The position numbers and the translations under genes were made by a program. Below the pieces are notes generated by a model that searched no databases, was not told where the DNA came from, and saw only the letters and a list, made by a program, of their open reading frames with translations. A DNA stretch of 64,000 nt from a virus (Duplodnaviria > Heunggongvirae > Uroviricota > Caudoviricetes): IMG/VR virus record IMGVR_UViG_3300029713_000003, positions 17,710-81,709 of that record, one strand, 5' to 3'. Below are positions 1-31,323 of this stretch, in pieces; position 1 is the stretch's first letter, and every line of letters begins with the position of its first letter.

Positions 1-3000
1 CGTCTCCCGCCGCAAAAGAAATACTCTCGTTTGTCAAAAAGGCATGAGCTGTATTCTCGCCATTGGTGCCGGAGTAGGATACGTTATAGGTTGTAGCGGT
101 CGTTCCATCAGAATAGGTTACAATCGTCTTTGACCATAGGTAGGAACCTTCTGTTACAGATGGAATATCATCCTGCCACAAGGCGCTGTCTTCTGCCGGC
201 TGCTCGTTGCTGTCTGTCTTTGCATACTTCGTCACCGTAGAAGAAACCGTTACGCCTGTTCCGGCGTCGCCCTTCAGTCTTGACCATGTATACGCGCTGT
301 ACGCGATTGGCGCTGAGCTGGCGGTTCCTGTGTAGATGCCGATGTACGCCGTATCCTTTTCAGGAAGCCGCGTCATGCTGGATCCATCCGCATTCGCAGA
401 GTACCGTACATAAGTATAGTAAGATACGCCTGTGGCTCCCGTCTTTCCGTTATAGGAGACCGAGTAGGTACGCATCGTAGACTTGTCTGAGAAGGTCACG
501 GTTGTCCGCGCCCATAGGAAATATCCCTCGGTCAGCGTCGGTACTTCGGTGTTCCAGCCAGCGTCATCGTCATCAGGTCTTCCCGGCTTTTCAGCGCTCA
601 CCTGATTGTACTCTACTAACGTAGACTCAACCGTGATGTCGCTGCCTACATACTTGCTCCATTTGAAGGCGGTGTAAGGGGGAACGGTTTCAGATGGGCC
701 AGCGTATGAACCGATATACTTGGTATCGACGGTCGGTGCTTCCTTCATCTGCCGTCCATCAGCATAAGCCGAATAGCGGATGTAAGCATAGTAGGATGTT
801 CCCGCGTCGCCCGTCGCACCGTTCCGTACTTTATACAGGGAGAAAATATCGTACACAGAATTGTCGGATGTTATAACCTTGATGGTGCATATATCGTTGA
901 CGAACAGGTTTTCATCCGTAGCGTTTACTGTCAGGGTACTTCCTGTTCCACTCCCCGGAACCTTCGCATATGAGCCGTCTGCTTGGCGGTATTGCCACTC
1001 CACAATTGTTACGTTCACCACGCTGCACGCAATGGTCTGGCTGTTCGGGTTCACAACTCCGTCTGTGTATTTGAACACATTTCCACCGGACAAAACACAG
1101 CTCTTTGTTTTTTCGGCGGCTACTACCTGCGTAAAGCTCAGGGAGTCCTGTCCCATCGTTTCGCCATTGTAAGATACCGCACAAATATATGTCACGCTGT
1201 CTGCGCCAAGCACATTCCCATTGATCGTCAGCTTTCCGGTAGAAGCATCAACTGCTTCATAACTGCCAAGCGCCGTCTCTGTTGAGCCGACCATCTTTTT
1301 CCAAGTGACAACGATTGCGTTATTGACTCCCGGTGTTGTCGCCGTACCGTATAGAAAAATGTATGGTTCAATCTCAACGGGCGTCGCTGCCCAATCAGGC
1401 GTATAGCCGCCTCCAAGGTTCGGGTCGTATACCTGTGTCACTGGAGCATTGCTGCTTAGATAAAAACGGAAGTCCTCGTCTGTCAGATTCGCAACCGCGA
1501 CAGTATCAAAATATAGTCTGGACAAATCTTCGTCCACATCAATAGTAATCTGGCACTCAAACGTTGCGCTTACAGGAACGTCGGTATTGGTCAGTGTAAT
1601 GGAACGCATGCCAATATGCGCCGCATTCCATACGGCATCCGAAGCGTCGTCGCCAGAGGAGCGTAGCCATTTGAATTTACTGGCGTCATATTTCTTCGTC
1701 ACATTTTCACCGTTGGCATACACATCTGCCGTCAGCGTTGTTTCGGCTACTGACTTGGAAAAGAATAAGCCGTTGTCGGATGTGATCTTCAGCTGATAAG
1801 TCACCATACTGTCAACCGCATCCTTGACAGTTAGGCGCACCGATTCGTTGCTGGAAAGGTCAAGGCTTTTCCCGACGTCGCTTGCCAGTTTGCTTGCGGT
1901 GATGGATCCTGCCTCAATGCGTTCGGCGCTCAGGTATCCGGTATAGATCGCGTCCGCAACAATGCCTTTGCCGGACGCTGCCGTTCTCCAGTTCCAGTTG
2001 CCGTCTTCTTTCTTTCCGTCAGCAATCATCCATCCGTCTCCGCATAGCTGCATGGCGCTGGAGCCATCGACGGATTCAAAGATGATATTGCCGTTGTCGT
2101 CTGTGTACCATGAACTCACCGAAGAGGAGAACCGCGTCACCAGCAAATCAATCGCGCCGTTCAGTCGTTCGGTCGCCAGCGTTCCTTCGGATGTAATCGC
2201 CTCAGAACGCTCGAACAATGTTTTCTTCTGCTCAATCAGATTGGCGATGGAGGTAATGCGGCTAAAGATGCTGTCAAAGTTGGCGGAGATATTTACTTCC
2301 TCGTTTGTAATCTCAACAGAACCTTGATCCTTGCGGTCAATGTACCGCTCGATCTTGTTCACATAAACCGTATCGTTGATTTCAAGCTCTGGGTCATAAA
2401 TGCGAACCTTGGAATTGAGCTCCACTTGCCCCGGCGTATATCCCATTGCATCCGACATCACCATCAGCGATACCGTATATTTGATGGTTGGCTTGGAAAC
2501 TTCCTTCATCACGTCAAGAGCGTCGTTGTAAAGATACTGCTCCTGTCCCTTGATGTAGTTGTCGTCGTTCCAATATCCATCACGGAGCAGATCGCCCATA
2601 GCTAAAACAAAATCAGCTTCGATGTTGTTCTGGTTTTTGATCTGTTCCTTCTGCGTGTTTGACAGAATACCGACCTCGGCTGCCAGTTTTACCGCACGGG
2701 CAAACTGCTCATATAGACCATAAGCCACAGCACTTACCGTCATGGTAAAGGTCGTGCCGTATAGCGTCGCTACTACTCCTGTAGAGTTACTGCTGCACTT
2801 GAGCTGAATCTTCTTAGCGACAGAAGAAACATTCAAAATGTTCGCAGGCAAGTCGTAAACGCTCTTGTCTTTAATCTCAGCAGCGGCAGCGCTCTCCGCA
2901 AGTGCATCAGTAATACCATAGTCGCCAAAAGAAAACTTCACGTCGTTAGCGTTTACCACAACGGTTTTGTCAGAGGCAAGCGCAGCGTCTGTACTGCTCA

Positions 3001-4471
3001 GTTTGTAGGACGCTGTGTTCAGAGTAACAGATGTGCTGGTTCGAGCAAGCTCCGCCTCTACCTCTGTTCCGTTCTGCAGCTCCTGTGCTCCTGTAACTTT
3101 TACCGTGTAGGCATGTTTCTCAATCTCGCCAGTGCCGTTGTAGACACCCTGAATCGAAGCGCGGGTAGCATTGATCGTTTCATTGTTCTTGGCTTTCGTG
3201 GCTTCAGAGGTTGTTTCTTTGGCGTTCTCTTTTTCCAGTTCGTCAATCGTTTGCTGCTTAGCCTCAATCGCGACTTCCTTTGCACCGATGGAACCGTTGC
3301 ACTTGCCAATGAATTTCAGAATGTGCGTTACGTTGGATGCGAACGTCAGCTTTGTGTCTGCAGTTACCGCCTGTGTTGTGTACTTCCCATCGTTGGTAAA
3401 CACGTACATCGTATCGCCAATCTCGAAGCTCTCTTGTGCGGTTTCTACTGTACCGCCAATATACTTTTCAGTCGGTGTCCCGTCCTTGACTGTCCAAAGC
3501 ACATAGTTCACACTGCCCCAAAGCAAAGAAAGCTCGCTGGACTTTGCAGATAAATCTGTTGCTGTCGCCATGGTTTCTTTCTTGATGGCTTTGATATCGG
3601 TCATATATTTATCCAGCGCTGCCTGATGAGCATCCGTAAAAGCGCCGATGCTTTTATAGTAATCGAAGTTCATCAGATAAGAAAGACCTGTGGGGTTCAC
3701 ATCGTCAATGCCGACATACTCTTTCTCATCATAGTCACCCTCGACATAAAGCCGCGTTACAATATTCTCGCTGTTTGATTCCTTGCTTAGCGCTGTCAGG
3801 TTCTTGCCTACTTCCATTTCCCAAAGGGGCTTCTTGTTATTCAGGTCAAAGCAGGCCACCTTTTTATTCACCGCATCATATACTGGATAGGCATTAAACA
3901 AGTCGCAGACCGATGCAATTAAAGAGTAAGCGCCCGCCTTGCTGTCCGAGCTGAGCGAGCGCTTCTTTTCTACTTTCTCTGCGGATTCATCCGTGGCATA
4001 GTTTTCATAGAAAACATCAGAGCCATCCTCATCAAATGTCCAGGCGGTTCCTGCAAGGATCTGATTCATCAGATAAGGAAGTGTACCGATGCCGTTCGTG
4101 TCATCAAAATATAAATACAGGTTCTTGGTCTTTAGCGTTCCAGATAGATGCCCACACTCCACGGTTCCGTTGATCTTCTTGCTGGACTTGCTCTTCTTGG
4201 GCGAGGTAATAATAAACCAGTCTTCTTTATTGCCTTCTTTTAACCGCACCTGATATTCTGCTTTGATGTATTTCCAACGCCAGTTATCTTCCTCTGCGGC
4301 ATCGTCTTTCTTCACCAGATAGGGTAAGGTAAAGTTCAGCGTCTTCCATCCAGAGAGCTCTGTCGTTACTGAAATGTCAAACGCCTGTCCCGGTGTCTGA
4401 ACCGTGCTGTCATACAGGTCGCAAACTTTCTTTCCTGAATAATCAAATACAGAAAGACTTTTCTGTTCCAT
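1..4471 (-). CDS. Tail fibre / Tal-like receptor-binding protein, N-terminal ~1490 aa (gene continues past window start)
   Basis: Continuous minus-strand reading frame with no stop from the ATG at 4471-4469 (RBS GGAGTGAAGGAAG) to position 1. Lies directly downstream of the TMP and Dit-like genes. C-terminal part is tandem ~126-aa repeats with a Y.Y.RYS..ADG ... TEG..LW ... T.Y.VSY.G pattern. Confidence 0.6.
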   Translation of the reverse strand, partial: MEQKSLSVFDYSGKKVCDLYDSTVQTPGQAFDISVTTELSGWKTLNFTLPYLVKKDDAAEEDNWRWKYIKAEYQVRLKEGNKEDWFIITSPKKSKSSKKINGTVECGHLSGTLKTKNLYLYFDDTNGIGTLPYLMNQILAGTAWTFDEDGSDVFYENYATDESAEKVEKKRSLSSDSKAGAYSLIASVCDLFNAYPVYDAVNKKVACFDLNNKKPLWEMEVGKNLTALSKESNSENIVTRLYVEGDYDEKEYVGIDDVNPTGLSYLMNFDYYKSIGAFTDAHQAALDKYMTDIKAIKKETMATATDLSAKSSELSLLWGSVNYVLWTVKDGTPTEKYIGGTVETAQESFEIGDTMYVFTNDGKYTTQAVTADTKLTFASNVTHILKFIGKCNGSIGAKEVAIEAKQQTIDELEKENAKETTSEATKAKNNETINATRASIQGVYNGTGEIEKHAYTVKVTGAQELQNGTEVEAELARTSTSVTLNTASYKLSSTDAALASDKTVVVNANDVKFSFGDYGITDALAESAAAAEIKDKSVYDLPANILNVSSVAKKIQLKCSSNSTGVVATLYGTTFTMTVSAVAYGLYEQFARAVKLAAEVGILSNTQKEQIKNQNNIEADFVLAMGDLLRDGYWNDDNYIKGQEQYLYNDALDVMKEVSKPTIKYTVSLMVMSDAMGYTPGQVELNSKVRIYDPELEINDTVYVNKIERYIDRKDQGSVEITNEEVNISANFDSIFSRITSIANLIEQKKTLFERSEAITSEGTLATERLNGAIDLLVTRFSSSVSSWYTDDNGNIIFESVDGSSAMQLCGDGWMIADGKKEDGNWNWRTAASGKGIVADAIYTGYLSAERIEAGSITASKLASDVGKSLDLSSNESVRLTVKDAVDSMVTYQLKITSDNGLFFSKSVAETTLTADVYANGENVTKKYDASKFKWLRSSGDDASDAVWNAAHIGMRSITLTNTDVPVSATFECQITIDVDEDLSRLYFDTVAVANLTDEDFRFYLSSNAPVTQVYDPNLGGGYTPDWAATPVEIEPYIFLYGTATTPGVNNAIVVTWKKMVGSTETALGSYEAVDASTGKLTINGNVLGADSVTYICAVSYNGETMGQDSLSFTQVVAAEKTKSCVLSGGNVFKYTDGVVNPNSQTIACSVVNVTIVEWQYRQADGSYAKVPGSGTGSTLTVNATDENLFVNDICTIKVITSDNSVYDIFSLYKVRNGATGDAGTSYYAYIRYSAYADGRQMKEAPTVDTKYIGSYAGPSETVPPYTAFKWSKYVGSDITVESTLVEYNQVSAEKPGRPDDDDAGWNTEVPTLTEGYFLWARTTVTFSDKSTMRTYSVSYNGKTGATGVSYYTYVRYSANADGSSMTRLPEKDTAYIGIYTGTASSAPIAYSAYTWSRLKGDAGTGVTVSSTVTKYAKTDSNEQPAEDSALWQDDIPSVTEGSYLWSKTIVTYSDGTTATTYNVSYSGTNGENTAHAFLTNESISFAAGD
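20..800 (-). repeat. Tandem ~380-nt (~126-aa) repeat units inside the tail-fibre gene (at least two near-identical units; further copies likely beyond window start)
   Basis: Long near-identical DNA stretches, e.g. 'gacttgtctgagaaggtcacggttgtccgcgcccataggaaatatccctcggtcagcgtcggtac' seen twice, and repeating protein blocks GATGxxxSYYxYxRYSAxADG. Confidence 0.5.
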
Positions 4472-4484
4472 CTTCCTTCACTCC

Positions 4485-5537
4485 TTAATGAACAAGCGGG
4501 GTGTACTCCATTTCAAATTTGGTCAGGGTCACGTTCCCCTCGATAGCCATTTGGTTCATGACAACAATCGTCGAGGATTCTTCACCACTGGCTTCCATGT
4601 TACCATTGAGAACGACGCCGTTTTTCGTGACGGCAATAATTCTCATCCACTTACCGCCGAGGTAAAGATACCTACCCACATGGCTCTGATCCAGTTCCTT
4701 GTTGTAGACGGTAACTGTGTTGCTGCCGGATGTATAGGCTACAAGCACTTCATCATAAAGAAGTCCCGATGGCTCCAGATCAATGAAGCCATAATCGTGA
4801 TACTCAAACATCAGCTCGCGTTGATTAGTGCTGGGGTCAACAAGCGTCACGCTCCCTTTCTGGCTGTCCAGTTCCAGATATGCAGGAGATGGGGGAAGAG
4901 CGATCAGCCTGCACTTCTGACCAGTTGTCTCGTTGCGGATCATAAAACCGTCCTTATCTGTTGCACCGCCAACTCGAATGATCGTCGGGGCGGTTTCTGT
5001 TCCGCAGTTATAAAAGATAAAACGTCTGTCGCTTAATTCCGGCGCAGCAGGCAGCTTGCTTTTTTCAAGCATTCCGCAGTATCTCGTAACGCCGTCTGTA
5101 TCAATGGTATCATAAGAACTGTACTCCAGTTTTCCAAACGGTTCATAAGCCGTAAAGGTAATAGAGAAAGTCCCGGAATACAGCGGTTCCATTCCATGCT
5201 CATGCTGCGAATACTGCTTGCCGGATGGCTTCTTTGTTATATACACATCGTAATACTTCCATGGCTTATCATCGAAGATCAGTCGCCCTGAACGCCTGCC
5301 GCTCAACCATTGTTTCATCTTTTCATAGGTCTTGCGCGGAATATCTTCATAATAGCAATTCAAAGAAAACTCTCGCGGCTTTGCCTTCCTGCCGTAATAA
5401 ATTCCGCCGTCATGCCAGTCAACGTCTTCGTCATACACTTCGTAGTCAGATCTATCGTCAAATAATGAACTCTCGTCCGGGATGTAGTACACACCAAAAG
5501 CACTGCTGTGTATTCCCATAAAAGAAAAACCATTCAT
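4485..5537 (-). CDS. Distal tail protein (Dit)-like / phage tail family protein
   Basis: ORF between the TMP and the fibre gene, which is the conserved siphovirus order TMP-Dit-Tal. Start taken at the internal ATG (MNGFSFMG) preceded by GGAGTG. The track ORF begins further upstream at 5585. Confidence 0.45.
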   Translation of the reverse strand: MNGFSFMGIHSSAFGVYYIPDESSLFDDRSDYEVYDEDVDWHDGGIYYGRKAKPREFSLNCYYEDIPRKTYEKMKQWLSGRRSGRLIFDDKPWKYYDVYITKKPSGKQYSQHEHGMEPLYSGTFSITFTAYEPFGKLEYSSYDTIDTDGVTRYCGMLEKSKLPAAPELSDRRFIFYNCGTETAPTIIRVGGATDKDGFMIRNETTGQKCRLIALPPSPAYLELDSQKGSVTLVDPSTNQRELMFEYHDYGFIDLEPSGLLYDEVLVAYTSGSNTVTVYNKELDQSHVGRYLYLGGKWMRIIAVTKNGVVLNGNMEASGEESSTIVVMNQMAIEGNVTLTKFEMEYTPLVH

Positions 5538-5649
5538 TATGAAACACTCCTTCCTTTTGTCCTCCCTATGTCCCTTATTAAACAACTTGCATTTTTGAAA
5601 TCAAACAAAAAAAGAGGAGGAGACCTTTCGACCTCCTCCTCAATCCAGC

Positions 5650-8600
5650 TTATAAAGCAATGCCGCCGACGGCGCGTCCACGGGTCATGGACTCCACGAT
5701 GGATTCCTTCACCTTGTCTGCCAAATCCTCAATGTCGCGGTCGCTGTCAAGCCGCTCCACTTTGATATTGATGTCGCCAAAGTTGTAGCCGTAGGACTTG
5801 TTGTTCGTTACGGCCTCGCCGTTATACTTCATTGGCGCTACACGAACTCGGTTCATTTGCTCCAAAGAAGCAACCAAGCCCTCGAACAGTTTTGTTTGTG
5901 TAGCAGACAAAATCCGTTCAGGATTAGCCTTGGTTCCATCAATCTGGATGGGCCCTGTAAAGTCGGCAATACCGCCGCGAGCATATTTCTTGACGGTGAT
6001 TTTGTCGTAGAACGTCCGCGCCCATTGTCCTATTGCGCTGGAACTGCTTCCTGAAAGCTGACGGCAAATAGAGTTGATCTTACTCTTGGTAGCAGCAATA
6101 GCCGCTTCCTCTGTGTCGTAACCCTTCAGGGTTCCGCCCTTTGCGCTTCCGATTGCAGGATAGGTCGCAGAGTATTTTTTCTTTCCTCCGCTGCCACCTC
6201 CGCTGGAACCACCTCCAGAAGAACCAGAGCTGCTTCCATCGTCGTCCGATCCGCCCCACTTGGTGTTATTGATGAACTTGCTGTTATCCAGCAGATTCGT
6301 CTGCATATCCTCGTAAGCCTTGCGGATCTTGTCAAACATATCCTGCCATCCTTCGATGTATGCTTCCTGCTGGAGCTTGCTCGCCTCACGGTATTTGTTG
6401 GAGTTCTCTTTCAGGAACGCAATTACCGCCTCATCACCCTGAGAGATAATATCCTGCACTTCTTGCCAGTGGTCGTGGATGATACCGTTCATCGTATCAA
6501 GCGTTTCTTTCCAGCCGTTCTCCATATCCGTCCGCGTGTTATCCGTGGAGTTCTTATAGTCCGTGCTGTTCTGCTCCAGCCAAGTCAAGATATCCTCCTG
6601 ACTCATCTTCAGGATGCTGTTCACTTGATCGATAAAGTTGCGCGGGTTATTCAACAGGTCTTCATAGTACTGCTCAATATAATCGCGGTAATCTTCCAGT
6701 GAAGAAATCTGCTGCTCAATGGATTTCTGCTGAGCCTCGCTTTCATTCTCCGCCTGATCCCAAGCAATTTCATCGCGCAGGTCGTCGATCTGGTCAAGAA
6801 TATCCTGTGCATCCTTGGCGCGTGTCGGGTCAGCCACAATACGGGAGTACTTTGCTTGCAGCTCTTGCAGCTGTGCCAGTTTGTCTTCCTGATCCGCCTG
6901 CTCCTTACGTGCGTCCAGCAATTCGGAAACCGCATCCTTCTCTTTGTTCAGCGCGTCGATTTGAGCGTCAATCGCATCAAGAATTGCCTGCTCCGCATCC
7001 TCCGCCTGAGCTTTCAAGATATCAAGGATAGTTTCCTCCATATCAATTCTAGCCTGCAGCATGTCGTCAATCCGCTGTTCACGGTCTTCGATAGCTTCTA
7101 GAATCTCATTCTCCAAGTCGAGCTTTAGCTGACGGATGGAATCATTCAGATCGTCAATCTTCTGCTTGTTGGACACAATGGAGGCTTCGTTTTCTGTCAG
7201 CTTCTGCGTCCAATCAGTGATGGCGTCCTGAATGGTATTCACCCGGCTCAAGATAGCGTCATACGCTTCGGTATCCGGGGTTGTGGAGTTGAACTGGTCA
7301 ATCAGTGCCGGCAGTCGTGCCTGCGCTTCTGCGATCTTCTCACGCAGAATCTTGTCCTGATCTTCCAGCATCTCATTCACCTGACCAAGCGCTTTGATCT
7401 CTGCGGTGAAGTAACCTTCAGAATCCCAGATGTTCATAATCGTATTCAACTGAGACATGCGATCCGTGATCCGCTTGACGGTGTTATCAACCTGCTCTAC
7501 CCAGCGCTCTTCCTCCGTGCGGGAACTGTCTTTTTTAGAGCTGCTATTGTTCTTGGAGCCGCTTCCACCACCGCCACCACTGCTCTTGGTGCTGGCTTTA
7601 CGATGAGAACCGGAGGAGAAGGGGTTGTTGCCAGTTGGCTTCAAAACCTTGTAAGTACCGTTGACCTGTCTGCTCACAAAGTCTCTTACTGTGCTGTCCC
7701 ATACTTTTGCAACACTGTTCACGGGGATCGTTTCCACTTCAAACTGGCCTGTCTTGATTAACGTATCCAGCATTTCCTGCGCCATGTTATCCACAATCAC
7801 AATGCCGTTCTCAAGGTCAGAGAAATCAACAGAAGACGTACCGGTAATGTTGAAGAACGCCTCTTGGTTTAGCAAGTCAAGCGCACTCAATCCATCTTGC
7901 GCATATTGCTGAAGCATGGCCGGAATTTGATCCCACGCCTGTAGAACCGCTTGGGGACTCATGCTCAGCACGCTCGCAATCTTGCTCACGTCAGAATACA
8001 AAATCTGATCCGCGCTGGAATATTTCTTGGCGAGGTTCTCATATTCCTGTGCAGCTTCAGCGTAGTTGTCTGCCATGGTGTAAACCTTGTCATAAGCACT
8101 TAAGACAGCAGCGCTGCTATCCGTTGCCTCGGTCATCTTCTCGATTTGCTTCGTAACATCATCGAAGTGCGTGTCGGCAACCTCTCGGTTCAAATCACTG
8201 AAGGCATCCTTCATGTCTTTCATAGCAGATGAGGCCGCGTCCGTATCGCCTGTGTCCAAAGCCTTCTTGTACCGTTCCCATGCGGTGCTGAACTTTAGAA
8301 TTGCATCGCTGTTATCAAGCATCCACTTTTGCTCTTCGGCTGAAGCAGATGCGAACTTTTCAATATAAGCATCCAGCCCGTCCAGCGTGCCATCTTCGCC
8401 AATGCTCATTAGGTTAGAAAACTCACTGAGCAGCGACTTCCCGTCTTCGTCTGTAACACCGCTATGGCTTTCCCTGTAATTATTCAATGCCACCAGCATT
8501 TGGTCAGAAGCGTTGGCAACCGCATCAGAAAAGCCTTCAAGGTTCTCGCCGGTTTCGCTGAGTCCGCCATTATCTCCAAGCTCTGCGATCTCTTTCAAAT

Positions 8601-11600
8601 AAGCTGTGAACTGTGGGAATACCTCAAGGAATTTTTCAAGGTTGCTGCTGTCAAGTCCTTGCATCCAAGCAAACAAAGCAGAACCGTCCACTGTTCCATC
8701 CTCGTTGATAAAACTCCGCAATTGGTCTATCCAGCTCTTGAAGTTACTGTTCTGTAGTGCTTTCAGCTCGTTATCGCTCGTCTGGTTCGCCAAAACTTTT
8801 GCAAGTTTAGAAGAGAGCTTTTCAACGTCAGTGCTCGCATCGTCTGCGGCGTCCCCAATATCCGCAAGCCCAGACGCTACGCCGCCAAAACTTTCTTTGG
8901 ATGGTAACTGAACAAAGAAGTCGTCGCCGTATTTTTCTTTGAGTGCATTATATGCAACTTCCAAACTGGCATATGCTGAATCAAATTCATCAGTACCATA
9001 CTTCGAATTGACGGCGTTCAGAGCTTTGATCCAATTGGCACCCCACTCAGTCTGTAACATCTTTTCTGAATATTCACTAGCACCCTGAAGAAGTTTCAAC
9101 ATCACGCCATTGATAGTCTCGTCGCCTTGTTTCATGGCTTCGACAAGCTGATCGATATAAGTTACGCCTGCGTCCTGAGCAGAGCCGACAACTGCATCTT
9201 TAATGCTGACTCCGTATTGAACCGATAGTGTTTCCAGTTCGTCGAACGCTTGGGCCAATGCGCCATCTTTGCCGACGTAATGCATGGCCTCGCCGGTCTT
9301 GATGGCTTCATCGCCAATATCAGCCAGAAGGTTTTTGATGATTTGCCCATCAATTTCAAGCCCTTCAGCATCTAGTGCAAACAGTTCTTCATTTGTCCAA
9401 GAACCATCTTCGTTTGCTTTATCAATAAGTCCCCAGATGTATTCATCTACTGTATTTGCATCCAGCAGCTTTGCGCCTTCTGGAGTTTGCAGTATTGGAG
9501 TAAAAGCAATTTCAATGCCATCATAATCCGCAGATGTTCCCATGACTGTTGATATACTTCCTTTTAAGTCATCAACAGTATATCCCCAAGATTCGTAGGC
9601 ATCTTTGAAAGCCTCAAGATTTTCTTCTGTCCATTCAAGCACCTGACGATTATTGGTATCAATATTTCCGTAAATCGTTTTACCAATATCTACGCCTAAA
9701 TCATCTGCTTCTTTACGAATGGCTTGGTAATCCCGAACGGCTTGTTTCAAATCATTTGGAATGCCAATAAACGTTCCAATCGTACCGTCTGTAAACATAT
9801 TCTCAAAGTAAGATTCAAACAATGCTTGGCTTCCGAAATCCATGTTGTCCCAATCCATTGGTTTCATTGAGTCAAACATGCTTTCAAATAATTGCTGTGC
9901 ATAGGTCTTTGCAGCTTCGTCCGCAGCCTCGTCATTCTGTGAACTCTGAACGGCATCAATAATAAATTGGCCGAGGTCAAGATCGTTTTCAGATGCATCA
10001 AGCGCTTCTTTGTAGGCAGTCACAAACTGTGACACGAACTTGGTAGCAAGGTTGGTGCCTTCGATGAGCCCCTTGTCGGAGTACAGCGCCTGTCTCACAT
10101 TTTCAACTACGCCATATTGTGCTTGCGTTATTTCGTTTACAATCTGCGTAACGGACATTTTGCCCCACCAGTGCTCATCGTTCATATTTGGGATGAGCTG
10201 TCCAATGGTTGAGATAGCGCTTTGGCCGGATTTAGAATCATACAGTCTGCCAATATTTGCGCTCAATGCAGGATCATTGATAATATCATAGCTATTATAT
10301 TTCTTCTGATCGGTTCGATACGCATCCATAATCTGCTTGATGCTGAGCTTGTTTGCTGCAGTTACTACACCGTTATAGCTCTGGGCAAGTCGATCCAGTT
10401 CTTCTCGCAGCGCTTTGGTTACGCCTTCCTGATTCTCCATACCGCCAGACACGTTAGAGAGCGCCATGGCTAATGTTGGTGAGAAGGTCTGCAGCTTCTT
10501 CCAAACTTCTTTTAGCTGAGCCTCTTCTTCTTGCGTGCGGTTTGTGATGGAAATTAGCTTCGTATACTCGCTTTGGAGTTTACTCAAAGAGGAATAATTC
10601 GTGGTGATATCTGCTTGCTTTTTCTGAAGCTCTTGCAATTTCTGCGCTTCATCGTGCGCGTTCCTGTATGCGCCAACAAGTGTCACAACACCAGCCGTGA
10701 TAGCAGCCAAAGTTCCTACTACAAGCGCCACCTTACCGCCAGTTAGGATTTTAGCAATATCGCCGATGCCTTTTGCAGCGCGAAGCGCTTTAACAACAGA
10801 GACAAGTTTACTAACCAGAAGCACAGCCGAGCCAACCGCAGCAGAGAAGACAAGGACATTCTTTGTCACCTGACCAAATCCTGTTTCCATACCGCTTGCA
10901 AAATTATCTGCCAATGAAGCCATTGTGGTATAAAAACTCTTAAGCGTTTCATTATCAAGGATAGTGGTGTACAAACGTTCGAGGGAAACGTTTAGATTTC
11001 CTTGTGCAGCAGCAACAGAATCCAGCCAGACCTCATACTTTTCTGTAACCGTTCCCGCTGATTCCATTGCACCGGCCAGCAGTTCATACATCCGGCTTCC
11101 GTTTTCAGCACCCTTGGCCATGTCGCCCATCAGTGCCAAGAAAACGTTTTGCTGTTTTGTACCAGCCATTGTTGTTGCAATATAAGACTTCTGCGCCGCA
11201 TCGAGCCCATTCCATTTAGATGCAATCTCATCAAGCACCGCAGCCATATCTTTCCACTGGCCATTCTCAAACAGATTGATTCCAAGAACATCACCCAGTG
11301 CTTTGGAAATATCGTTGGCTCCTGTTGTCGTTCCATCATCATTGGTCGTGTAGCCAGTTTTCTTGATACTGTGCCAACGAGCAATAATTGTATTAAATGC
11401 AGTACCAATAGACGCCGCATCCTGACGTGTCGTTTCAGAAACCGTTGCAATGTATGCGCCCAGATGCTTAAAGTCCAAACCGAAAGCCGCAGCCGCTGCA
11501 GCAGCTTTCTGCATTGCCGTGCCGATTTCTGAACCGGACGAAGCGGATGCGTCGCCGAGATAAGTGAACAAATCAACAACCTCTTGCGCGGAAACGCCCA

Positions 11601-14600
11601 TAGAGTTTGTGGACGCAGTGATCTGCGTAGCAGCTTCATCAAACGACTGGGCTGTAATCTTCGCATACATAGATGCCCACTTGGTACGAGACATCGTTTC
11701 TTCTTCGTCCAAGCCCTGACGCCAGAACTCAACAGCTGCTGTGGCAATATCAGTAGAAGAAATCTGGAGTTCTTTTGCAAGATTGCGATACGATTGGCTT
11801 AGCGCCTCAATCTGACTATCCGTCTGCATCGTAACAATCTGAATCTCGTTCAGCTTGTCAAAGTATTCCGTTGCATAAGAAATCGCGTTAGTCCAAATGC
11901 TGCGAAGCGCTCGTGCTACGATCATCGTTTTTGCCATCTGGACAATTTGATTCAGCAGCTTTTCACTAACCTCGCCAGTCTTGAGGCTTAAGTCGTTTTC
12001 CAGACGAACACGCTGCTCCTGTATCTGCTTCAGTTTGGTTTGCGTATCAAGACCAGTTTTATCCATGCTATTGACCTGCTGAGCAATGCGTTCTTCTTCC
12101 TGACGCAAACGGTTAATCTCAGCCTGACGTGCAGCACGTTGTGCTCCTGTTCCTTTGCCTGACTGGTTTTCAAGTGTGAGCCTACGCTTTTCATATGACC
12201 ATTGTTCTTCCAAAAGCTGATTATATTCTTTTTGGCGGGTAGCAACGCTATTCGAATTTACAGCAGCGGCATACCGCTTTTGAGCTTCAGTGGCAGCGTC
12301 AATGTAACTTTGCTCTTGAGCCAATGCGGAATTCTTTTTCAAAATGTCTTTGATCTCGGCATCAAGGTTTTGAGCGCGGCGGGTGTATTCGTCTTTGTCA
12401 ACAGTTGTTGTTGCCGTTTCCGCTTTGGTCATGAGATCCCAGTACTCTGCCGTCTTGCTAATCAGGGCGCTTAGATTGCTTGATTGATTCGCACTCTGCT
12501 GTTTTGCAGAAAGATTATCCAAAGCGTCGGATGTCTTTTGTTCTGCTTCAGTCCAAGCATTTTGAACCGCAACAGAATTGCGTACCGTATCAGAGTAAGA
12601 ATCGTAAGAGGCTTTCGCACGATTGATCTGCTCTTGGAGCGTAGCAAATTCCGGTGAATCCGTCTTGAATTTTGCCTGTGTCTTTTGCAGACTATGGTAC
12701 TCGTTCAGTGCCTTGATGCAACCCTTAATCTGATCCTGTTCATATGCAAGGCTTTGTTTGTACTCGGTATCCGCTTCTTTTTGAGCAATCTTATCCGTTG
12801 TGTCACGATAAGCCTGAACAGCGGCAGCCTGTGCTTTCACGTAAGCGTTCGTAGCGTCTGTCTGTGCCTGAAGGATAGCTGCAGAGTTGCGACGTTTATC
12901 GTCCAAACCATCCATTGCCCTTTCAGCTTGATTGATTTTTTCAATAGCCTGGTCGTATAGATCAGCAGCCAGATCTTCATCTTTTGCAGAGAAAGACTGT
13001 GAGATCAAAGTCCCAGCACTCTTGTAAAGAGATACAATCTCATCAACAGCAGATTTTTGATTGGCTGTGCCACGAATCACTTGGCTGGTTATTTGAGCGG
13101 CGGTATTATAATACTGAGTGATGCTACGGTTGGCTTCGTTCCATCCTGTTGCGACCGCTCCAGTAACAGATCCATCTCTTCCATAAGTGACCTGAAGATT
13201 ATGAAGACGAGTGATGCGGTTCTCCAGTTGGTTGACCTGTTCACCAGATGCCTCAGCCTGAGCGCCGATGTTAGAAATATTCGTGCCGGAAGAATTGATG
13301 TTCTCTTTAATAACCGACAAAAGATGTTCGCCTTGTGTGTTGTTTTGATTACTGTTGAGCAACTGAGAAATAGTATCCATTACAACACGGAGCCTTTCAG
13401 GATCCAGATGCGTAATGGCTTCGCCCATAGAAGATATTGCCTGCGCAATACCATTCAAACCATCACGAAGGTTTGCCGTCATCGACTCGGAGAGCTTGGT
13501 ACTCATAGAGTCAGCCAAAGTAAGACCATCCGTAGCACCAAGCGCTGTCTTAATTTCTTCCAGCTTCTCTGCTGTTTTCTGTAAATCAGTTAGAGAACTT
13601 TCGATTTTGCTAAAGCCAGTTTCCTCGTTCTTTACCGCAAACAAATCATGCAGCGCTGCGACAAGTTCACTCAGCTTCTTTGTATCGAAAGCAGCCAGCG
13701 TTTGAGCCACAGCTTGTAGATTAACCGCGAACTGTTTCATGTCTCCGCTGTTTTGAAAGCCGGTAAAGAAACCATTCGCCTTTGTTAAGCTGGTCTGGCT
13801 CAGGTCGCGGAACTTGGATATATACTTGTTGGTATCCTGAATAAATGCCGCTGCTGGATCGGTAGAAAACATTTCTTTGATAGATGCAGAGAAGGAACCA
13901 GAAGTCTGAGCCACCACACGATTCAGCGCATTCTCACTCACATTAACATCTTGGAGTGCGTTTTTGAAATCCTCTACATTGATGGTTGCGGTTGTTGTCT
14001 CTGTGGATAGCTTACGGATATGTTCGGCAAATGTAGCCTGTCCCTTTACATCGATATTGAAATCATTCAGAGCCGCTTCATAACTTTCGTAATCTGTAAA
14101 GATATGAGTAATCAGTGTCCCGATTTTCTCAAGTTCTTCGGCAAAATTGACAAGGCCAGCGGTGGCGTCTGTCGGATCGGCCATGATGAATGCGTCAATA
14201 TTATTCCGAGATCCTTCAAGCGCATCAATAAAAGATATAACTTCTTGTTTGGATTTGTTTATATCTGATACTGTTTTGCCGACAAATACATTCGTTACCG
14301 CATTGCCAACATCCGTCATTTCTTTTGTTAGTTTTTTGAAGCTCTCGGTAAGCTGCTCTACTTGCCCGTCGCTCAAACCATTCAGTTTTTGAGCAAACTT
14401 GTCAAGCTGCTTTTCATCAGATAGAGTTTTAAGGGCGGCTGCAATAGCGGCAATATCTCGACCAACTGTAATCTTAGCCTTATTGCTACCATTCTGTACT
14501 GTAGCAAGCCCTTTAATAATTGTTCCAATAGCCTTTTCTAACTCGGAAGTATCGCCAATAAAGTCTTCAGCTGAAGCATCCTTGGTTTTATTTTGAGCAT

Positions 14601-15873
14601 TAGTAATTGCTTCCGCACTTTTATTTGTTGCAGTCAATGCCTGGTTAGCATTTGTTTTCATCTTAATCAGTTCATCAACGACTCCACTGACAGATTCTGC
14701 TGCCTCATGCATTGCCCCAGCAAAATTCTTGGTATTTTCAACTTGTGTAGTAGTTAGCGTGTTGTTTTTTAGAGCCGAGAGTACATCATTCAGTTGCTCT
14801 GCTTTTGACTTGGTTGTATTCAGCGCTTTGTCAACTTGACCAGTAACTTTTGAGGCGTCACTTCCTTTGACAATCGCAGCGGAGATTTGACTGCCGATAG
14901 AAAGAATATTCTGCTTAATATCTTCAAGATGTTCACTAATTGATCGAAATGTCACAAGGTCATCTGAATTTACCAGATTGCCATTCTTGTATTTTATTCC
15001 AGAAACTTCTCTGAAAGCGTTTGCAAGATAACCAACAGCGCTTGAGAGATTTGCAAGCCGCTGATCATCAGGCAATGCTTTTGTTATATCCACGCCGCCT
15101 GCCGCGTCTCTTGCTGCAATAGCCTTCTCAGCGACTACATCAAGAGACTTTGCAAGTTTGCTGAACGCGCTTCCATCAACCGATCCATCAAACTCTGCCA
15201 GTTTGCCAATAGCATTCACAAGCGTAGTGATCTTCCGGTCAACATTTGTCAGTCCGTCCATGGCGTCAACGAAATCTCGTACCTGCTCGGCGAGGGGTGA
15301 TAGGTCTATCACACTCCCTTCGCTGTCCTTACCCATTCCTGCAAGCACGCTGTTCAGCTTGCTTAGATCTATGGTGGCAATGTTCTTAAGTGCAGTCGCA
15401 TAATCACGGAGAGCAGAAGATGCCTTTTGAACATCGTCGCTCTTAAAGGCTTTTAGAAAGTCTTCACTCTGAATGAGCGCACTGAACTTCTTAATGCTAT
15501 TCTGTAAATCAGCTAACTGATCTTGCACTTCAGTTAATTTAACCTTGTTTACGTCAGCCATGGAGTCTGCCATCTTCTCCATATAGGAATCAATACTACC
15601 TACGATCTTGCCAACGTTTGTATCAAGGCTCTGCAAATTCCGCGCTACCTGAGAAAGATCAATCGTGTTCGTAATCTTGCCAATCTCAGTTTGAATGGTT
15701 GTGGCTGCCTGCACAACACGATTCGCCAACGAAGAAAATTCATTCTTCACCTGTGCAAAGTCAGCAGCACTGTTCACATTGTCAACCGTCTGCTGAATTG
15801 CCTTGGCTCCTTTTTGAATAGAGCGCAGGCTCAGCTCTATGCTGGCTGACAAAATATTGCTTTCATTTGCCAT
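5650..15873 (-). CDS. Tail tape measure protein, giant (3407 aa)
   Basis: Single 10.2-kb ORF. Has long coiled-coil-like Q/A/K/E-rich N-terminal region. The central block (...FGLDFKHLGAYIATVSETTRQDAASIGTAFNTIIARWHSIKKTGY...) is typical of the TP901-family TMP core. Hydrophobic segments (VLVFSAAVGSAVLLVSKLVSVV..., VALVVGTLAAITAGVVTLVGAY) and Gly/Ser-rich linkers are present. Position between the chaperone genes and Dit/Tal fits a TMP. Confidence 0.8.
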   Translation of the reverse strand: MANESNILSASIELSLRSIQKGAKAIQQTVDNVNSAADFAQVKNEFSSLANRVVQAATTIQTEIGKITNTIDLSQVARNLQSLDTNVGKIVGSIDSYMEKMADSMADVNKVKLTEVQDQLADLQNSIKKFSALIQSEDFLKAFKSDDVQKASSALRDYATALKNIATIDLSKLNSVLAGMGKDSEGSVIDLSPLAEQVRDFVDAMDGLTNVDRKITTLVNAIGKLAEFDGSVDGSAFSKLAKSLDVVAEKAIAARDAAGGVDITKALPDDQRLANLSSAVGYLANAFREVSGIKYKNGNLVNSDDLVTFRSISEHLEDIKQNILSIGSQISAAIVKGSDASKVTGQVDKALNTTKSKAEQLNDVLSALKNNTLTTTQVENTKNFAGAMHEAAESVSGVVDELIKMKTNANQALTATNKSAEAITNAQNKTKDASAEDFIGDTSELEKAIGTIIKGLATVQNGSNKAKITVGRDIAAIAAALKTLSDEKQLDKFAQKLNGLSDGQVEQLTESFKKLTKEMTDVGNAVTNVFVGKTVSDINKSKQEVISFIDALEGSRNNIDAFIMADPTDATAGLVNFAEELEKIGTLITHIFTDYESYEAALNDFNIDVKGQATFAEHIRKLSTETTTATINVEDFKNALQDVNVSENALNRVVAQTSGSFSASIKEMFSTDPAAAFIQDTNKYISKFRDLSQTSLTKANGFFTGFQNSGDMKQFAVNLQAVAQTLAAFDTKKLSELVAALHDLFAVKNEETGFSKIESSLTDLQKTAEKLEEIKTALGATDGLTLADSMSTKLSESMTANLRDGLNGIAQAISSMGEAITHLDPERLRVVMDTISQLLNSNQNNTQGEHLLSVIKENINSSGTNISNIGAQAEASGEQVNQLENRITRLHNLQVTYGRDGSVTGAVATGWNEANRSITQYYNTAAQITSQVIRGTANQKSAVDEIVSLYKSAGTLISQSFSAKDEDLAADLYDQAIEKINQAERAMDGLDDKRRNSAAILQAQTDATNAYVKAQAAAVQAYRDTTDKIAQKEADTEYKQSLAYEQDQIKGCIKALNEYHSLQKTQAKFKTDSPEFATLQEQINRAKASYDSYSDTVRNSVAVQNAWTEAEQKTSDALDNLSAKQQSANQSSNLSALISKTAEYWDLMTKAETATTTVDKDEYTRRAQNLDAEIKDILKKNSALAQEQSYIDAATEAQKRYAAAVNSNSVATRQKEYNQLLEEQWSYEKRRLTLENQSGKGTGAQRAARQAEINRLRQEEERIAQQVNSMDKTGLDTQTKLKQIQEQRVRLENDLSLKTGEVSEKLLNQIVQMAKTMIVARALRSIWTNAISYATEYFDKLNEIQIVTMQTDSQIEALSQSYRNLAKELQISSTDIATAAVEFWRQGLDEEETMSRTKWASMYAKITAQSFDEAATQITASTNSMGVSAQEVVDLFTYLGDASASSGSEIGTAMQKAAAAAAAFGLDFKHLGAYIATVSETTRQDAASIGTAFNTIIARWHSIKKTGYTTNDDGTTTGANDISKALGDVLGINLFENGQWKDMAAVLDEIASKWNGLDAAQKSYIATTMAGTKQQNVFLALMGDMAKGAENGSRMYELLAGAMESAGTVTEKYEVWLDSVAAAQGNLNVSLERLYTTILDNETLKSFYTTMASLADNFASGMETGFGQVTKNVLVFSAAVGSAVLLVSKLVSVVKALRAAKGIGDIAKILTGGKVALVVGTLAAITAGVVTLVGAYRNAHDEAQKLQELQKKQADITTNYSSLSKLQSEYTKLISITNRTQEEEAQLKEVWKKLQTFSPTLAMALSNVSGGMENQEGVTKALREELDRLAQSYNGVVTAANKLSIKQIMDAYRTDQKKYNSYDIINDPALSANIGRLYDSKSGQSAISTIGQLIPNMNDEHWWGKMSVTQIVNEITQAQYGVVENVRQALYSDKGLIEGTNLATKFVSQFVTAYKEALDASENDLDLGQFIIDAVQSSQNDEAADEAAKTYAQQLFESMFDSMKPMDWDNMDFGSQALFESYFENMFTDGTIGTFIGIPNDLKQAVRDYQAIRKEADDLGVDIGKTIYGNIDTNNRQVLEWTEENLEAFKDAYESWGYTVDDLKGSISTVMGTSADYDGIEIAFTPILQTPEGAKLLDANTVDEYIWGLIDKANEDGSWTNEELFALDAEGLEIDGQIIKNLLADIGDEAIKTGEAMHYVGKDGALAQAFDELETLSVQYGVSIKDAVVGSAQDAGVTYIDQLVEAMKQGDETINGVMLKLLQGASEYSEKMLQTEWGANWIKALNAVNSKYGTDEFDSAYASLEVAYNALKEKYGDDFFVQLPSKESFGGVASGLADIGDAADDASTDVEKLSSKLAKVLANQTSDNELKALQNSNFKSWIDQLRSFINEDGTVDGSALFAWMQGLDSSNLEKFLEVFPQFTAYLKEIAELGDNGGLSETGENLEGFSDAVANASDQMLVALNNYRESHSGVTDEDGKSLLSEFSNLMSIGEDGTLDGLDAYIEKFASASAEEQKWMLDNSDAILKFSTAWERYKKALDTGDTDAASSAMKDMKDAFSDLNREVADTHFDDVTKQIEKMTEATDSSAAVLSAYDKVYTMADNYAEAAQEYENLAKKYSSADQILYSDVSKIASVLSMSPQAVLQAWDQIPAMLQQYAQDGLSALDLLNQEAFFNITGTSSVDFSDLENGIVIVDNMAQEMLDTLIKTGQFEVETIPVNSVAKVWDSTVRDFVSRQVNGTYKVLKPTGNNPFSSGSHRKASTKSSGGGGGSGSKNNSSSKKDSSRTEEERWVEQVDNTVKRITDRMSQLNTIMNIWDSEGYFTAEIKALGQVNEMLEDQDKILREKIAEAQARLPALIDQFNSTTPDTEAYDAILSRVNTIQDAITDWTQKLTENEASIVSNKQKIDDLNDSIRQLKLDLENEILEAIEDREQRIDDMLQARIDMEETILDILKAQAEDAEQAILDAIDAQIDALNKEKDAVSELLDARKEQADQEDKLAQLQELQAKYSRIVADPTRAKDAQDILDQIDDLRDEIAWDQAENESEAQQKSIEQQISSLEDYRDYIEQYYEDLLNNPRNFIDQVNSILKMSQEDILTWLEQNSTDYKNSTDNTRTDMENGWKETLDTMNGIIHDHWQEVQDIISQGDEAVIAFLKENSNKYREASKLQQEAYIEGWQDMFDKIRKAYEDMQTNLLDNSKFINNTKWGGSDDDGSSSGSSGGGSSGGGSGGKKKYSATYPAIGSAKGGTLKGYDTEEAAIAATKSKINSICRQLSGSSSSAIGQWARTFYDKITVKKYARGGIADFTGPIQIDGTKANPERILSATQTKLFEGLVASLEQMNRVRVAPMKYNGEAVTNNKSYGYNFGDINIKVERLDSDRDIEDLADKVKESIVESMTRGRAVGGIAL

Positions 15874-15900: not shown

Positions 15901-15930
15901 AAAAAGAAAAGGGACTGCCTTCACAGTCCC
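15901..15930 (-). terminator. Rho-independent terminator-like hairpin (minus strand) between the 209-aa gene and the TMP start
   Basis: GGGACTG ccttca CAGTCCC stem-loop followed on the minus strand by TTTTCTTTTT. Confidence 0.45.
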
Positions 15931-15938
15931 TCATATCA

Positions 15939-16568
15939 TCAATTCTTTTTTGTTCTCTTCTTTGCAAGGTTAATCACTGCGCCGCCATCCAAAGCAATCT
16001 TGTCGTTCTTAGCCGGCTGGTTTTCTTTGCGCTCCATCGCAGCTCCGATCATATCAATCATTTGGCTGTTCACAGCTTCACTCTTAGCAATACTCTCCGT
16101 AATATCCTCATCAGTCAGGAGTGAAGCAAAGGATTTCTTGATCTTTGCAGAAAGAGTGTGGCTTTCTTCATATGAATGATAGGTTGCATAGCGCATCAAG
16201 ATATAAAGCTCACGAACAAGTTTGTAATCCTGCTCAACCGTACTAAACAATTCATGATAGATTCCGTTCATAGTCAGCCAGTCAATCAATAGCTTCCAGT
16301 CCTTCTCTTCTGCCATCTCAGAAACATCAATGTTGGTGTAGTACTTTGCCACCAATGCACATTCGAGCAGCGGCTTCTTATAACTGTCATACATAATTTC
16401 TGCCGCATCATCCGTCACGCTGGTATACATAGCCAACTCAAGCGCCATGGCTTCCTTGCTGTCATATGGGATATGCTCTTTCACTTCAATATGCGAACCG
16501 TCTTTGCAGGTCAAAGTAATAATGCCAACATTCGGGATATTCTCAGCAGCGATTTTAATCTTTTCCAT
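15939..16568 (-). CDS. Hypothetical protein (209 aa) inserted between the G/GT chaperone genes and the TMP
   Basis: ORF with RBS GGAG N9 ATG; no recognisable motif. Confidence 0.5.
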   Translation of the reverse strand: MEKIKIAAENIPNVGIITLTCKDGSHIEVKEHIPYDSKEAMALELAMYTSVTDDAAEIMYDSYKKPLLECALVAKYYTNIDVSEMAEEKDWKLLIDWLTMNGIYHELFSTVEQDYKLVRELYILMRYATYHSYEESHTLSAKIKKSFASLLTDEDITESIAKSEAVNSQMIDMIGAAMERKENQPAKNDKIALDGGAVINLAKKRTKKN

Positions 16569-16569: not shown

Positions 16570-16911
16570 TTATTTTTCTCCTTTTCCCTTTATATGAATA
16601 TCTGCCTTGCCAAAGAAATCAGCAAGAGAGTGCATGGTTTTGCTGTTTGATGCTGTGCCATTCTCGGCAATGTTGAACGGATTGCTGTCTGAAATCATCT
16701 GCCAGCTTTTCTCGCAGAAACTGTTTCCAGCGTAGTTCACAACCGCCTCATAGTTCAGGCGGTGTCCGAGTTCATGAAGCACATCATCAAAGAAAACATA
16801 GGACATGTTATTGATCTCATCTTCATTGATTACGCCAAGATGAGCTGCAACAATTGCGACGGCGCGGTCGAGACTTACACCGCCCCCTTCCGATCCGTCT
16901 CCATGTTTTTT
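16570..16911 (-). CDS. T extension of the G/GT chaperone, reached by a -1 programmed frameshift (fusion about 270 aa)
   Basis: The -1 frame is open from the slippery site at 16911-16905 through to 16570. The downstream track ORF (16570..16806) is in exactly the -1 frame relative to G. The extension contains an HELGH (HEXXH) motif. Confidence 0.5.
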   Translation of the reverse strand, partial: KKHGDGSEGGGVSLDRAVAIVAAHLGVINEDEINNMSYVFFDDVLHELGHRLNYEAVVNYAGNSFCEKSWQMISDSNPFNIAENGTASNSKTMHSLADFFGKADIHIKGKGEK

Positions 16912-17393
16912 AGCTTCTCGTCCTTTTCGGTAATCCTGTTGACACGTTTGAAGATCACAAGGATCTTCTCAATCGTCTCTGTGTCCATGTCATCATAGTT
17001 TTCCGTAATCAGCTTTTCATCGTCGGTTGCCGCAATCAGCCAATCCATTACAGCCTTATCGCCGTCTCGCTCGTCGCCAAACTGACCTGCATCCATAGCC
17101 AAAATATCAGTCAGAGGATAGAGATCCAAAATACGATAAAATGTCGCGGTGCGATTGCGCTGGTACTTCAGTTTTGTAGCTTTTATTTCAATAGGTCTCC
17201 CGCCAATAATCACTGTGTTCTCAGGGTTTCTAATAGCGGGGAGACTCTTTGTTTTCGTTTTTGAATCGGGCATCGGCTTCGCCGTGCTTTCGGTCGTAGG
17301 GGTTTCCTTCGTGGTATGATCCACTTCTGGTAGTTGCTTTTGATTCTGCTCAATATCCGGCAGACTCTTTTTGCGTGGAGCCATATGCTGCAC
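16875..17393 (-). CDS. Tail assembly chaperone (G-like), 172 aa
   Basis: Sits between the major tail protein and the TMP. Ends 9 codons after an A_AAA_AAC slippery heptamer. Confidence 0.55.
   Translation of the reverse strand: MQHMAPRKKSLPDIEQNQKQLPEVDHTTKETPTTESTAKPMPDSKTKTKSLPAIRNPENTVIIGGRPIEIKATKLKYQRNRTATFYRILDLYPLTDILAMDAGQFGDERDGDKAVMDWLIAATDDEKLITENYDDMDTETIEKILVIFKRVNRITEKDEKLKNMETDRKGAV
16905..16911 (-). promoter_or_regulatory. Slippery heptamer A_AAA_AAC (programmed -1 ribosomal frameshift site)
   Basis: Plus-strand gtttttt, which reads AAAAAAC on the minus strand in X_XXY_YYZ phase of the G frame. Confidence 0.55.
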
Positions 17394-17415: not shown

Positions 17416-17456
17416 ATAAAAAGAAAAAGGGAGGTTCCCGAAAATGAGAACCTCCC
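17416..17456 (-). terminator. Rho-independent terminator downstream of the major tail protein gene
   Basis: GGGAGGTTC ... GAACCTCCC stem followed on the minus strand by TTTTTCTTTTT. Confidence 0.55.
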
Positions 17457-22379: not shown

Positions 22380-22400
22380 TACTTTTGCACCTCGTTTCAA

Positions 22401-29613: not shown

Positions 29614-29617
29614 AAAT

Positions 29618-29891: not shown

Positions 29892-29904
29892 ATAATCTTT
29901 ACAA

Positions 29905-31321: not shown

Positions 31322-31323
31322 AA

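Follow-up and report, generated by a model that had tools for sequence, protein, structure and literature searches.

A giant TP901-family tape measure protein with an embedded folded domain in an uncultured phage with an SPβ-like structural module

The tape measure gene and its integrity

We have analysed a 64,000-nucleotide stretch of DNA from an uncultured member of the Caudoviricetes (IMG/VR record IMGVR_UViG_3300029713_000003, positions 17,710 to 81,709), and this whole stretch is called the window below. Its minus strand carries a giant gene for a tape measure protein (TMP), which both the list of open reading frames (ORFs) and the translation give as a single ORF with no internal stop. 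The first-pass annotation had reported a single uninterrupted 10.2-kb ORF of 3407 amino acids (aa) at this position, and its coordinates and length were exact, the strand being left unstated. Judged by its profile matches, the product is a TP901-family tape measure protein. The probable explanation of the locus is that it encodes the giant TP901-type TMP of an uncultured SPβ-like phage, with a tail of about 450-545 nm and with a folded domain, here called the cassette, inserted into the protein. The features of the locus are collected in Table 1.

Both profiles of the family match the protein strongly. PF10145 scores 90.2 bits against a curated cut-off of 33.2, and TIGR01760 (tape_meas_TP901) scores 89.3 bits against a cut-off of 28.8 over aa 1328-1589, which bears out the earlier placement of a TP901-type core at about aa 1350-1650. 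Matches also came from seven PHROG families that bear the annotation tape measure protein. When the protein was compared with the TMPs of isolated phages by tblastn, the core region was the sole matching part, with 36% identity to the TMP of Psychrobacillus phage Perkons and 21-30% identity to those of Clostridium c-st, the 140-kb Enterococcus phages, the Lactococcus 949 group, SPβ-like phages, Sundance, PMBT24 and phAss-1. Among homologs the core is broadly shared together with the two hydrophobic helices that follow it (aa ~1215-1830), and these helices hold the only 19-residue Kyte-Doolittle windows above 1.6 in the TMP; equivalent hydrophobic regions (to aa ~1669-1736) are required in the TMP of TP901-1 (PMC5099701). 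Proline is rare (28 of 3407 residues, 0.8%). A comparison of the whole TMP with PDB sequences returned low-complexity noise only, and a segment-wise Pfam search up to E 10 gave sub-threshold helical noise only. No muralytic domain (SLT, M23 or the Rpf-like Mt3) was matched in the TMP by Pfam or NCBIfam, with segments searched to E 10.

Table 1. Positions of the features discussed, in residues of the TMP and in nucleotides of the window
Feature	TMP residues	Window position	Strand	Basis or remark
TMP gene	1-3407	5650..15873	minus	3407 codons + TAA stop, ATG start
N-terminal extension, lineage-specific	1-~1215	12229..15873	minus	search + AF2 secondary structure
TP901-type core, PF10145 PhageMin_Tail	1360-1571	11161..11796	minus	E=2e-25
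Two hydrophobic, transmembrane-like helices	~1669-1697, ~1709-1736	10666..10869	minus	Kyte-Doolittle
Variable middle region, acidic, aromatic-rich	~1830-2785	7519..10386	minus	composition, homolog comparison
Globular alpha/beta domain cassette	2028-2220 (~193 aa)	9214..9792	minus	AF2, homolog comparison
Gly/Ser linker 1 (SSGGGGGSGS)	2764-2773	7555..7584	minus	composition
Conserved C-terminal module	2785-3407	5653..7521	minus	homolog comparison, composition
Gly/Ser linker 2	3213-3230	6184-6237	minus	inside C-terminal module
Tail-tip protein Tal, cut by window edge		1..4471	minus	PF24049 YOMG_N, PF06605 Prophage_tail
Distal tail protein Dit, 350 aa		4485..5537	minus	phrog_33, PF05709 Sipho_tail
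Terminator-like hairpin + T-run directly after TMP stop		5614..5641	minus	12-bp stem, strongest in region
Terminator-like hairpin + T-run between ORF C and TMP ribosome-binding site		15909..15932	minus	
ORF C, 209 aa, between chaperone and TMP		15939..16568	minus	99% conserved in L002
Tail assembly chaperone pair		16570..17384	minus	G-like ORF of 169 aa at 16875..17384
Terminator-like hairpin after tube gene		17429-17456	minus	
Tail tube protein, YomU_Tube type, 264 aa		17463..18257	minus	phrog_2729
Capsid-type protein		21369-22400	minus	L002 ortholog carries PF27364 YonB

An ORF of this size could be an artefact of chimeric assembly, of repeats that were expanded or collapsed, or of sequencing errors that fused separate genes, and we consider this very improbable. 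Four sources supplied more than 20 independent assemblies in which the same uninterrupted TMP is found at full length, at 3403-3469 aa. Proteins of 92-99% identity and 3403-3460 aa form 21 clusters; the assemblies concerned come from ENA, Logan, JGI and NCBI, and their contigs reach 715 kb. ERZ28750540, ERR3450627 and SRR30282457 are among the samples with nearly identical contigs; a further copy, 87% identical, lies on an IMG/VR contig, and a 3416-aa copy is deposited in GenBank as DAF84009.1 under the title 'MAG TPA: minor tail protein [Caudoviricetes sp.]'. Neither tandem repeats nor direct repeats of any significance were found in the DNA of the gene, and self-BLAST of the protein found no internal repeats, so that there is nothing for an assembly to collapse or expand. 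Substitutions relative to two related copies are concentrated at third codon positions. In comparison with the 99%-identical copy on contig L002, the substitutions fall 30, 18 and 165 times on codon positions 1, 2 and 3, and 162 codon changes are synonymous and 41 non-synonymous, with synonymous changes prevailing in each 400-aa segment that has more than one change. By this pattern, the TMP is under purifying selection in a single frame over its whole length. A megablast of the gene against 50,697 GenBank phage records gave no match, and a scan of genome contigs with the whole TMP confirmed no relative.

Three cases of divided TMPs favour an artefact. On contig L016 (a Logan SRR30282457 contig, 3001-7794), the TMP is called as a 597-aa ORF and an overlapping 2826-aa ORF; the division is due to a single 2-nt deletion at nucleotide ~1761 of the gene on this one contig, the result of a faulty assembly or else of a prophage copy that has been inactivated. 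Some distant relatives are split as well. In Flintibacter muris DSM 110149 (L006; NZ_CALPCP010000004.1, 264-10833), the TMP-like region is interrupted directly behind its hydrophobic segment. PF10145 lies in the resulting 1030-aa gene and the cassette in the 2154-aa gene, and the ~1 kb between the two contains an antisense 170-aa Cys-rich ORF; this insertion matches no Rfam (intron) family, and the TMP concerned is only distantly related. Finally, a split TMP has been described for phage CB457P1 (PMC11035940). On the other hand, full-length homologs align from residue 1, and the N-terminal extension was never found as a complete stand-alone protein. The two ways in which the first-pass annotation had expected its claim to fail, a chimera by repeat collapse or expansion and homologs divided among several genes, are thus both contradicted by the independent assemblies, the lack of repeats, the selection and the full-length homologs.

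The same annotation had set aside the antisense ORFs inside the gene as low-complexity artefacts; they are artefacts indeed, but their cause lies in codon usage, the gene being free of low-complexity repeats. The longest antisense stretch has 215 codons, synonymous-codon shuffles gave 242 +/- 57, and 139 of 200 shuffles reached a frame of 215 codons. The antisense and alternative-frame ORFs are truly open but are products of chance, and the antisense frames are open because TTA, CTA and TCA codons are scarce (71 of 3407).

Recoding of the stop codon TAG could also alter the true boundaries of the gene, and there are hints of it: a suppressor-type tRNA with anticodon CUA (29538-29613; labelled Pyl by ARAGORN) belongs to a 20-tRNA cluster on the minus strand (29538-35330), none of the 23 late-strand ORFs ends in TAG as against 2 of 39 on the other arm, and one of the distantly related TMP cores belongs to phAss-1, a TAG-recoded phage. 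However, the TMP gene ends in TAA and is followed by a strong terminator-like hairpin, and reading TAG as sense merges no structural ORFs. Neither the TMP nor the neighbouring structural ORFs contain an in-frame TAG, so that there is no clear sign of recoding. Considering the TAA stop and the lack of in-frame TAG, we rejected a shift of the TMP boundaries by recoding, to which we assign next to no probability.

Modular architecture and the embedded cassette

The side of the protein C-terminal to the core is a mosaic, composed of the hydrophobic hairpin, a swappable middle, two Gly/Ser linkers and a conserved module. The middle region, about 950 aa long, is exchanged wholesale in the relatives P0022, P0023 and P0185. 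The C-terminal module consists of a highly charged helical stretch, linker 2 and a C-terminal end of ~180 aa, and it is common to all relatives at 28-98% identity, including the 4504-aa P0027 and the 4632-aa P0029. Despite the swaps of modules, the total length of the TMP across relatives stays at 3169-3469 aa. To judge from these alignments, the giant TMPs of the clade are built from exchangeable blocks. The protein collection holds many TP901 TMPs of 2400-4632 aa, with hundreds of 2400-4600 aa from metagenomes.

Within the middle region lies the cassette. P0024 and P0026 are collinear with the TMP, with ~50% identity on either side of aa 2028-2220, and lack precisely this block; it is from this clean absence that we regard the block as a cassette. 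Its motifs are, in order, YGNIDTNNRQVLEW ... EIAFTPILQT ... YIWGLID ... TGEAMHYVG. The AlphaFold2 (AF2) model of the cassette, built on a 22-sequence alignment, is a compact α/β domain with flanking helices (pLDDT 92.7, pTM 0.84). When the middle region served as query, 61 proteins of 595-1778 aa were found whose identity to it, at 47-67%, is confined to aa ~2041-2216. These domains are found either within TMP-like giants or in proteins of 596-874 aa that match PHROG 1887 'tail protein'; in L004, the gene for such a phrog_1887 cassette protein lies two genes further downstream than that for a 2051-aa TMP. The genomes concerned are Flintibacter muris prophages and metagenome-assembled genomes of Clostridia, Eubacteriales, Faecalibacterium and Peptococcaceae, with one of Paludibacteraceae.

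The cassette resembles little that is on record. Its best Foldseek hit against the PDB had an E of 0.77, a profile search against PDB sequences gave nothing significant, Pfam gave no match, and neither did tblastn against the same GenBank phage records; in BFVD, the matches are unnamed proteins of uncultured gut siphoviruses only. Nine residues are invariant in all members of the cassette (G2069, N2070, R2076, P2126, G2133, L2137, Y2145, G2171 and G2204). Among them the polar residues are Asn, Arg and Tyr only, and no Asp, Glu, His, Cys or Ser is invariant across all members, the most divergent included. This argues against a standard hydrolase and favours binding over catalysis. Accordingly, in terms of function, our suggestion has low confidence: the cassette may act as an envelope-binding or adaptor domain rather than as an enzyme. 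Most likely it would be an accessory module that leaves the tail together with the TMP and acts at the cell envelope. While in the lumen of the tail, it probably still counts toward tail length, as the Mt3 motif of TM4 does.

A wider reading joins these points with the length of the protein, and we put it forward as a tentative possibility. The cassette may found a new family with a fold absent from the PDB, a unit that, in phages of gut Clostridia, moves between TMPs and tail-tip proteins and serves a new envelope- or host-directed function at infection. In the same reading, the N-terminal extension would be kept since a tail of ~0.5 µm is adaptive, the total length staying at 3169-3469 aa.

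The N-terminal extension and the predicted tail length

The N-terminal extension is lineage-specific. A search with aa 1-1200 in 1.84 billion representatives found 12 clusters only; the full-length matches are 3169-3331 aa long, with alignments that begin at residue 1, and none of the 12 clusters offers the complete extension as a protein by itself. The other short matches (P0183, P0184, P0186 and P0187) begin at or near residue 1 or span a short internal stretch, and the idea that short N-terminal matches represent a separate gene was rejected, the one examined, P0182 (L016), being the 2-nt frameshift form of the full-length gene. The AF2 model of aa 1-1200 contains 79% helix and no beta domains. 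No Pfam family matched segments of the extension, and aa 8-554 weakly match the PHROG TMP family phrog_167. The annotation had proposed coiled-coil-rich extensions on both sides of the core, and this agrees, at low confidence, with the helical N-terminal 1200 aa but fails for the mosaic on the C-terminal side. The TP901 core begins at residue ~1330 here and at ~360 in YomI of SPβ. From this offset, the helical extension of ~1200-1300 aa is what accounts for most of the extra size over YomI (2295 aa).

The extension is also the fastest-evolving part of the TMP. Against the 92%-identical copy on contig L001, all indels fall within aa 298-413. Over aa 1-800 (window ~13474-15873), non-synonymous changes outnumber synonymous ones (194 against 96), and over aa 801-1200 every codon is identical. 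This mosaic suggests recent recombination inside the extension. A short stretch of the extension, aa 164-229 (window ~15187-15384), matches 9-15 separate stretches in each of P0188 (3657 aa), P0189 and P0190, which hints at a helical repeat unit common to other giant proteins.

To estimate the tail, we took the ratios of isolated phages. SPβ has a tail of 320 nm (PMC8270828), which with the 2295-aa YomI of phage Goe11 gives 0.139 nm per residue; Tsamsa, with a TMP of 3123 aa and a tail of 440 nm, gives 0.141 (PMC3903500); TP901-1, with ~810 contributing residues and a tail of 118 nm, gives 0.146 (PMC5099701); and P23-45, with 5002 aa and 800 nm, gives 0.160. By these ratios, a protein of 3407 aa would have a tail of 475-545 nm; without the cassette in the count, the range is 448-514 nm. 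The predicted tail is thus ~450-545 nm, about four times that of a typical siphovirus and within the published range. The earlier estimate of roughly 500 nm was arithmetically sound; its wording of an exceptionally long tail was overstated, considering the published tails of Tsamsa and P23-45 and the many TMPs of 2400-4632 aa.

An alternative, which we regard as unlikely, is that only part of the protein is a ruler. The first ~1300 aa would then be cargo or be lost by processing, perhaps together with the middle, and the tail would be SPβ-like and measure ~300 nm. Its precedent is the TMP of P23-45, whose part before the core forms a globular RNA polymerase carried as cargo. Among the distant homologs of our TMP, P0027 (motif at aa ~982) and P0029 (aa ~940) have DFDGD/DVDGD in large, non-helical regions N-terminal to the core, and motifs of this type have been reported, as the metal-binding signature of RNA polymerases, for the virion polymerase that Thermus phage P23-45 carries fused to its TMP. 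Apparently the N-terminal regions of P0027 and P0029 are polymerase cargo likewise, so that N-terminal extensions are not always simple rulers; since both proteins carry the DxDGD motif, TMP-polymerase fusions may be widespread beyond Thermus phages. The Tsamsa TMP runs as bands of 280 and 100 kDa, suggesting processing (PMC3903500). The restriction of the extension to 12 clusters worldwide, its fast evolution with indels and an excess of non-synonymous changes against L001, and the presence of a folded, non-ruler domain in the middle of the protein would also suit a partial ruler.

Against this alternative stand both the extension itself and experiments on other phages. The extension has no D.DGD motif, no family match and no predicted beta structure, it is predicted to be largely helical, and its weak PHROG match is to a TMP family. 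In TP901-1, deletions and duplications in the TMP, including N-terminal ones, change tail length proportionally (PMC5099701). In P23-45, the ratio of 0.160 nm holds when the whole protein is counted. In TM4, the embedded Mt3 counts toward length, and deletion of this 114-aa motif shortens the tail by ~20 nm (PMC1796659). The relatives of the present TMP, for their part, hold their total length despite the swaps.

Besides the polymerase cargo of P23-45 and apparently of P0027 and P0029 and the processing in Tsamsa, further points weigh against a giant full-length ruler in an SPβ-like phage. The Gly/Ser linkers could be cleavage sites, and the model of the extension has low confidence (pLDDT 42.5, six-sequence alignment). 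The function proposed for the cassette is purely inferential, neither its structure nor its sequence having a relative with an assigned function, and the similarity to SPβ is at profile level only. In a separate check, a polymerase fused to the TMP was ruled out, since the D.DGD motif of the P23-45-type RNA polymerase does not occur in the protein.

If the protein is indeed a giant TP901-type ruler over its whole length, as we consider probable, assembly and infection may proceed as follows. A few TMP copies, held by the G/GT chaperones, would line the lumen of the growing tail tube, and the tube would polymerise up to the N-terminal end of the ruler, its length scaling by ~0.14-0.16 nm per residue, with the C-terminal module seated in the Dit/Tal tip complex. 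At infection, the TMP would be expelled, and the two hydrophobic helices (aa ~1669-1736) would insert into the membrane and form or line a conduit for DNA.

The tail module and comparison with known phages

The gene order on the minus strand is canonical for a TMP locus: the capsid-type protein, small head-tail genes including a YomW-type one, tube, chaperone, ORF C, TMP, Dit and Tal. There is no sheath-sized gene between capsid and TMP, so the particle should be a siphovirus, and a myovirus was rejected on this ground. The chaperone ORF has an in-frame slippery heptamer A_AAA_AAC at 16905..16911, kept in L001, L002 and L015, and the -1 frame is open from 16968 as far as the stop at 16570, which would yield a GT-like product of ~271 aa; a classical G/GT pair (169 + ~271 aa) made by -1 frameshifting is thus predicted. 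ORF C has no Pfam, PHROG or NCBIfam match. The three strongest terminator-like hairpins of the tail module occupy the intergenic gap behind the tube gene and those on either side of the TMP, and they could grade expression from the tube (hundreds of copies) down to the TMP (few copies).

Several of these genes connect the window to SPβ. YonB, YomW and YomU_Tube are annotated on L001 and L002 genes whose identity to the ORFs of the window is 98.7-99.6%; in particular, the tube protein is 99.6% identical to an L002 gene carrying PF27173 YomU_Tube. YOMG_N was found directly on the Tal of the window, of which 1490 of about 2015 aa lie inside and which is of full length in L002. At profile level, the structural module is SPβ-like, and the phage is best described as a structural relative, not as a member of the genus Spbetavirus, because there is no nucleotide match and identity to phage Goe11 is 24% for the core and 28% for Tal. 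A check for a YonO-type RNA polymerase found no further ORF of more than 600 aa in the window, which covers about half of a genome of ~100-130 kb. At window ~38000, the sign of the GC skew and the coding strand switch together, and this point is where two divergent transcription arms meet: a left arm with the structural and tRNA genes on the minus strand, and a right arm with small genes on the plus strand.

In summary, in this study, a robust uncultured case is added to the small set of siphophages with predicted tails near half a micrometre, and phages of gut metagenomes are linked to the SPβ structural lineage. These findings leave the present view of tail-length control as it was. The more useful lead is the modular map together with the confidently folded and highly conserved cassette, which also occurs in separate tail proteins. 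Considering that Mt3 of TM4 and the polymerase of P23-45 proved to be infection effectors, the cassette is a concrete candidate for biochemical characterisation.

Among known systems, SPβ is similar in several respects. Its YomI has the TP901 core followed by hydrophobic segments, is giant (~2290 aa) and belongs to a long flexible tail (320 nm), and Spbetavirus phages such as vB_BsuS-Goe11 share nearby YomU_Tube, YomW, YonB, the YOMG_N Tal and the Sipho_tail Dit. On the other hand, the core is only 24% identical and nucleotide similarity is absent; the annotation of YomI is that of a transglycosylase, whereas the present TMP shows no detectable lytic domain; and Goe11 has ~7 kb of other genes between chaperone and yomI, whereas the order here is compact. 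Tsamsa (vB_BanS-Tsamsa of Bacillus anthracis) is likewise a giant temperate siphovirus of a Firmicute, with a TMP of more than 3000 aa and a tail that fits the ruler rule (PMC3903500); the present TMP is 284 aa longer and carries the cassette, and we do not claim close kinship.

Two other systems show extra modules in rulers. Gp96 of P23-45/P74-26 (5002 aa, ~800 nm, with an N-terminal virion RNA polymerase) is also a giant TMP with a large N-terminal region and additional modules. The TMP described here differs from it in that it has no DxDGD motif, no polymerase-like region and no metallopeptidase domain, in its N-terminal extension, which is predicted to be all-helical, and in the unrelated host group. 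Gp17 of TM4 has a dispensable motif inside the ruler, the peptidoglycan-hydrolase Mt3, which is present or absent among homologs and adds tail length; Mt3 is related to known hydrolases and Rpf, whereas the cassette has no such relative and no invariant residue of catalytic type. The founder of PF10145 and TIGR01760, the TMP of TP901-1 (937 aa, 118 nm), is 3.6 times shorter and has 29 tandem repeats where the present TMP has none. The two proteins are nevertheless alike in the core, in the hydrophobic regions and in the chaperone frameshift upstream, and also in the C-terminal end, which TP901-1 needs at its tail tip.

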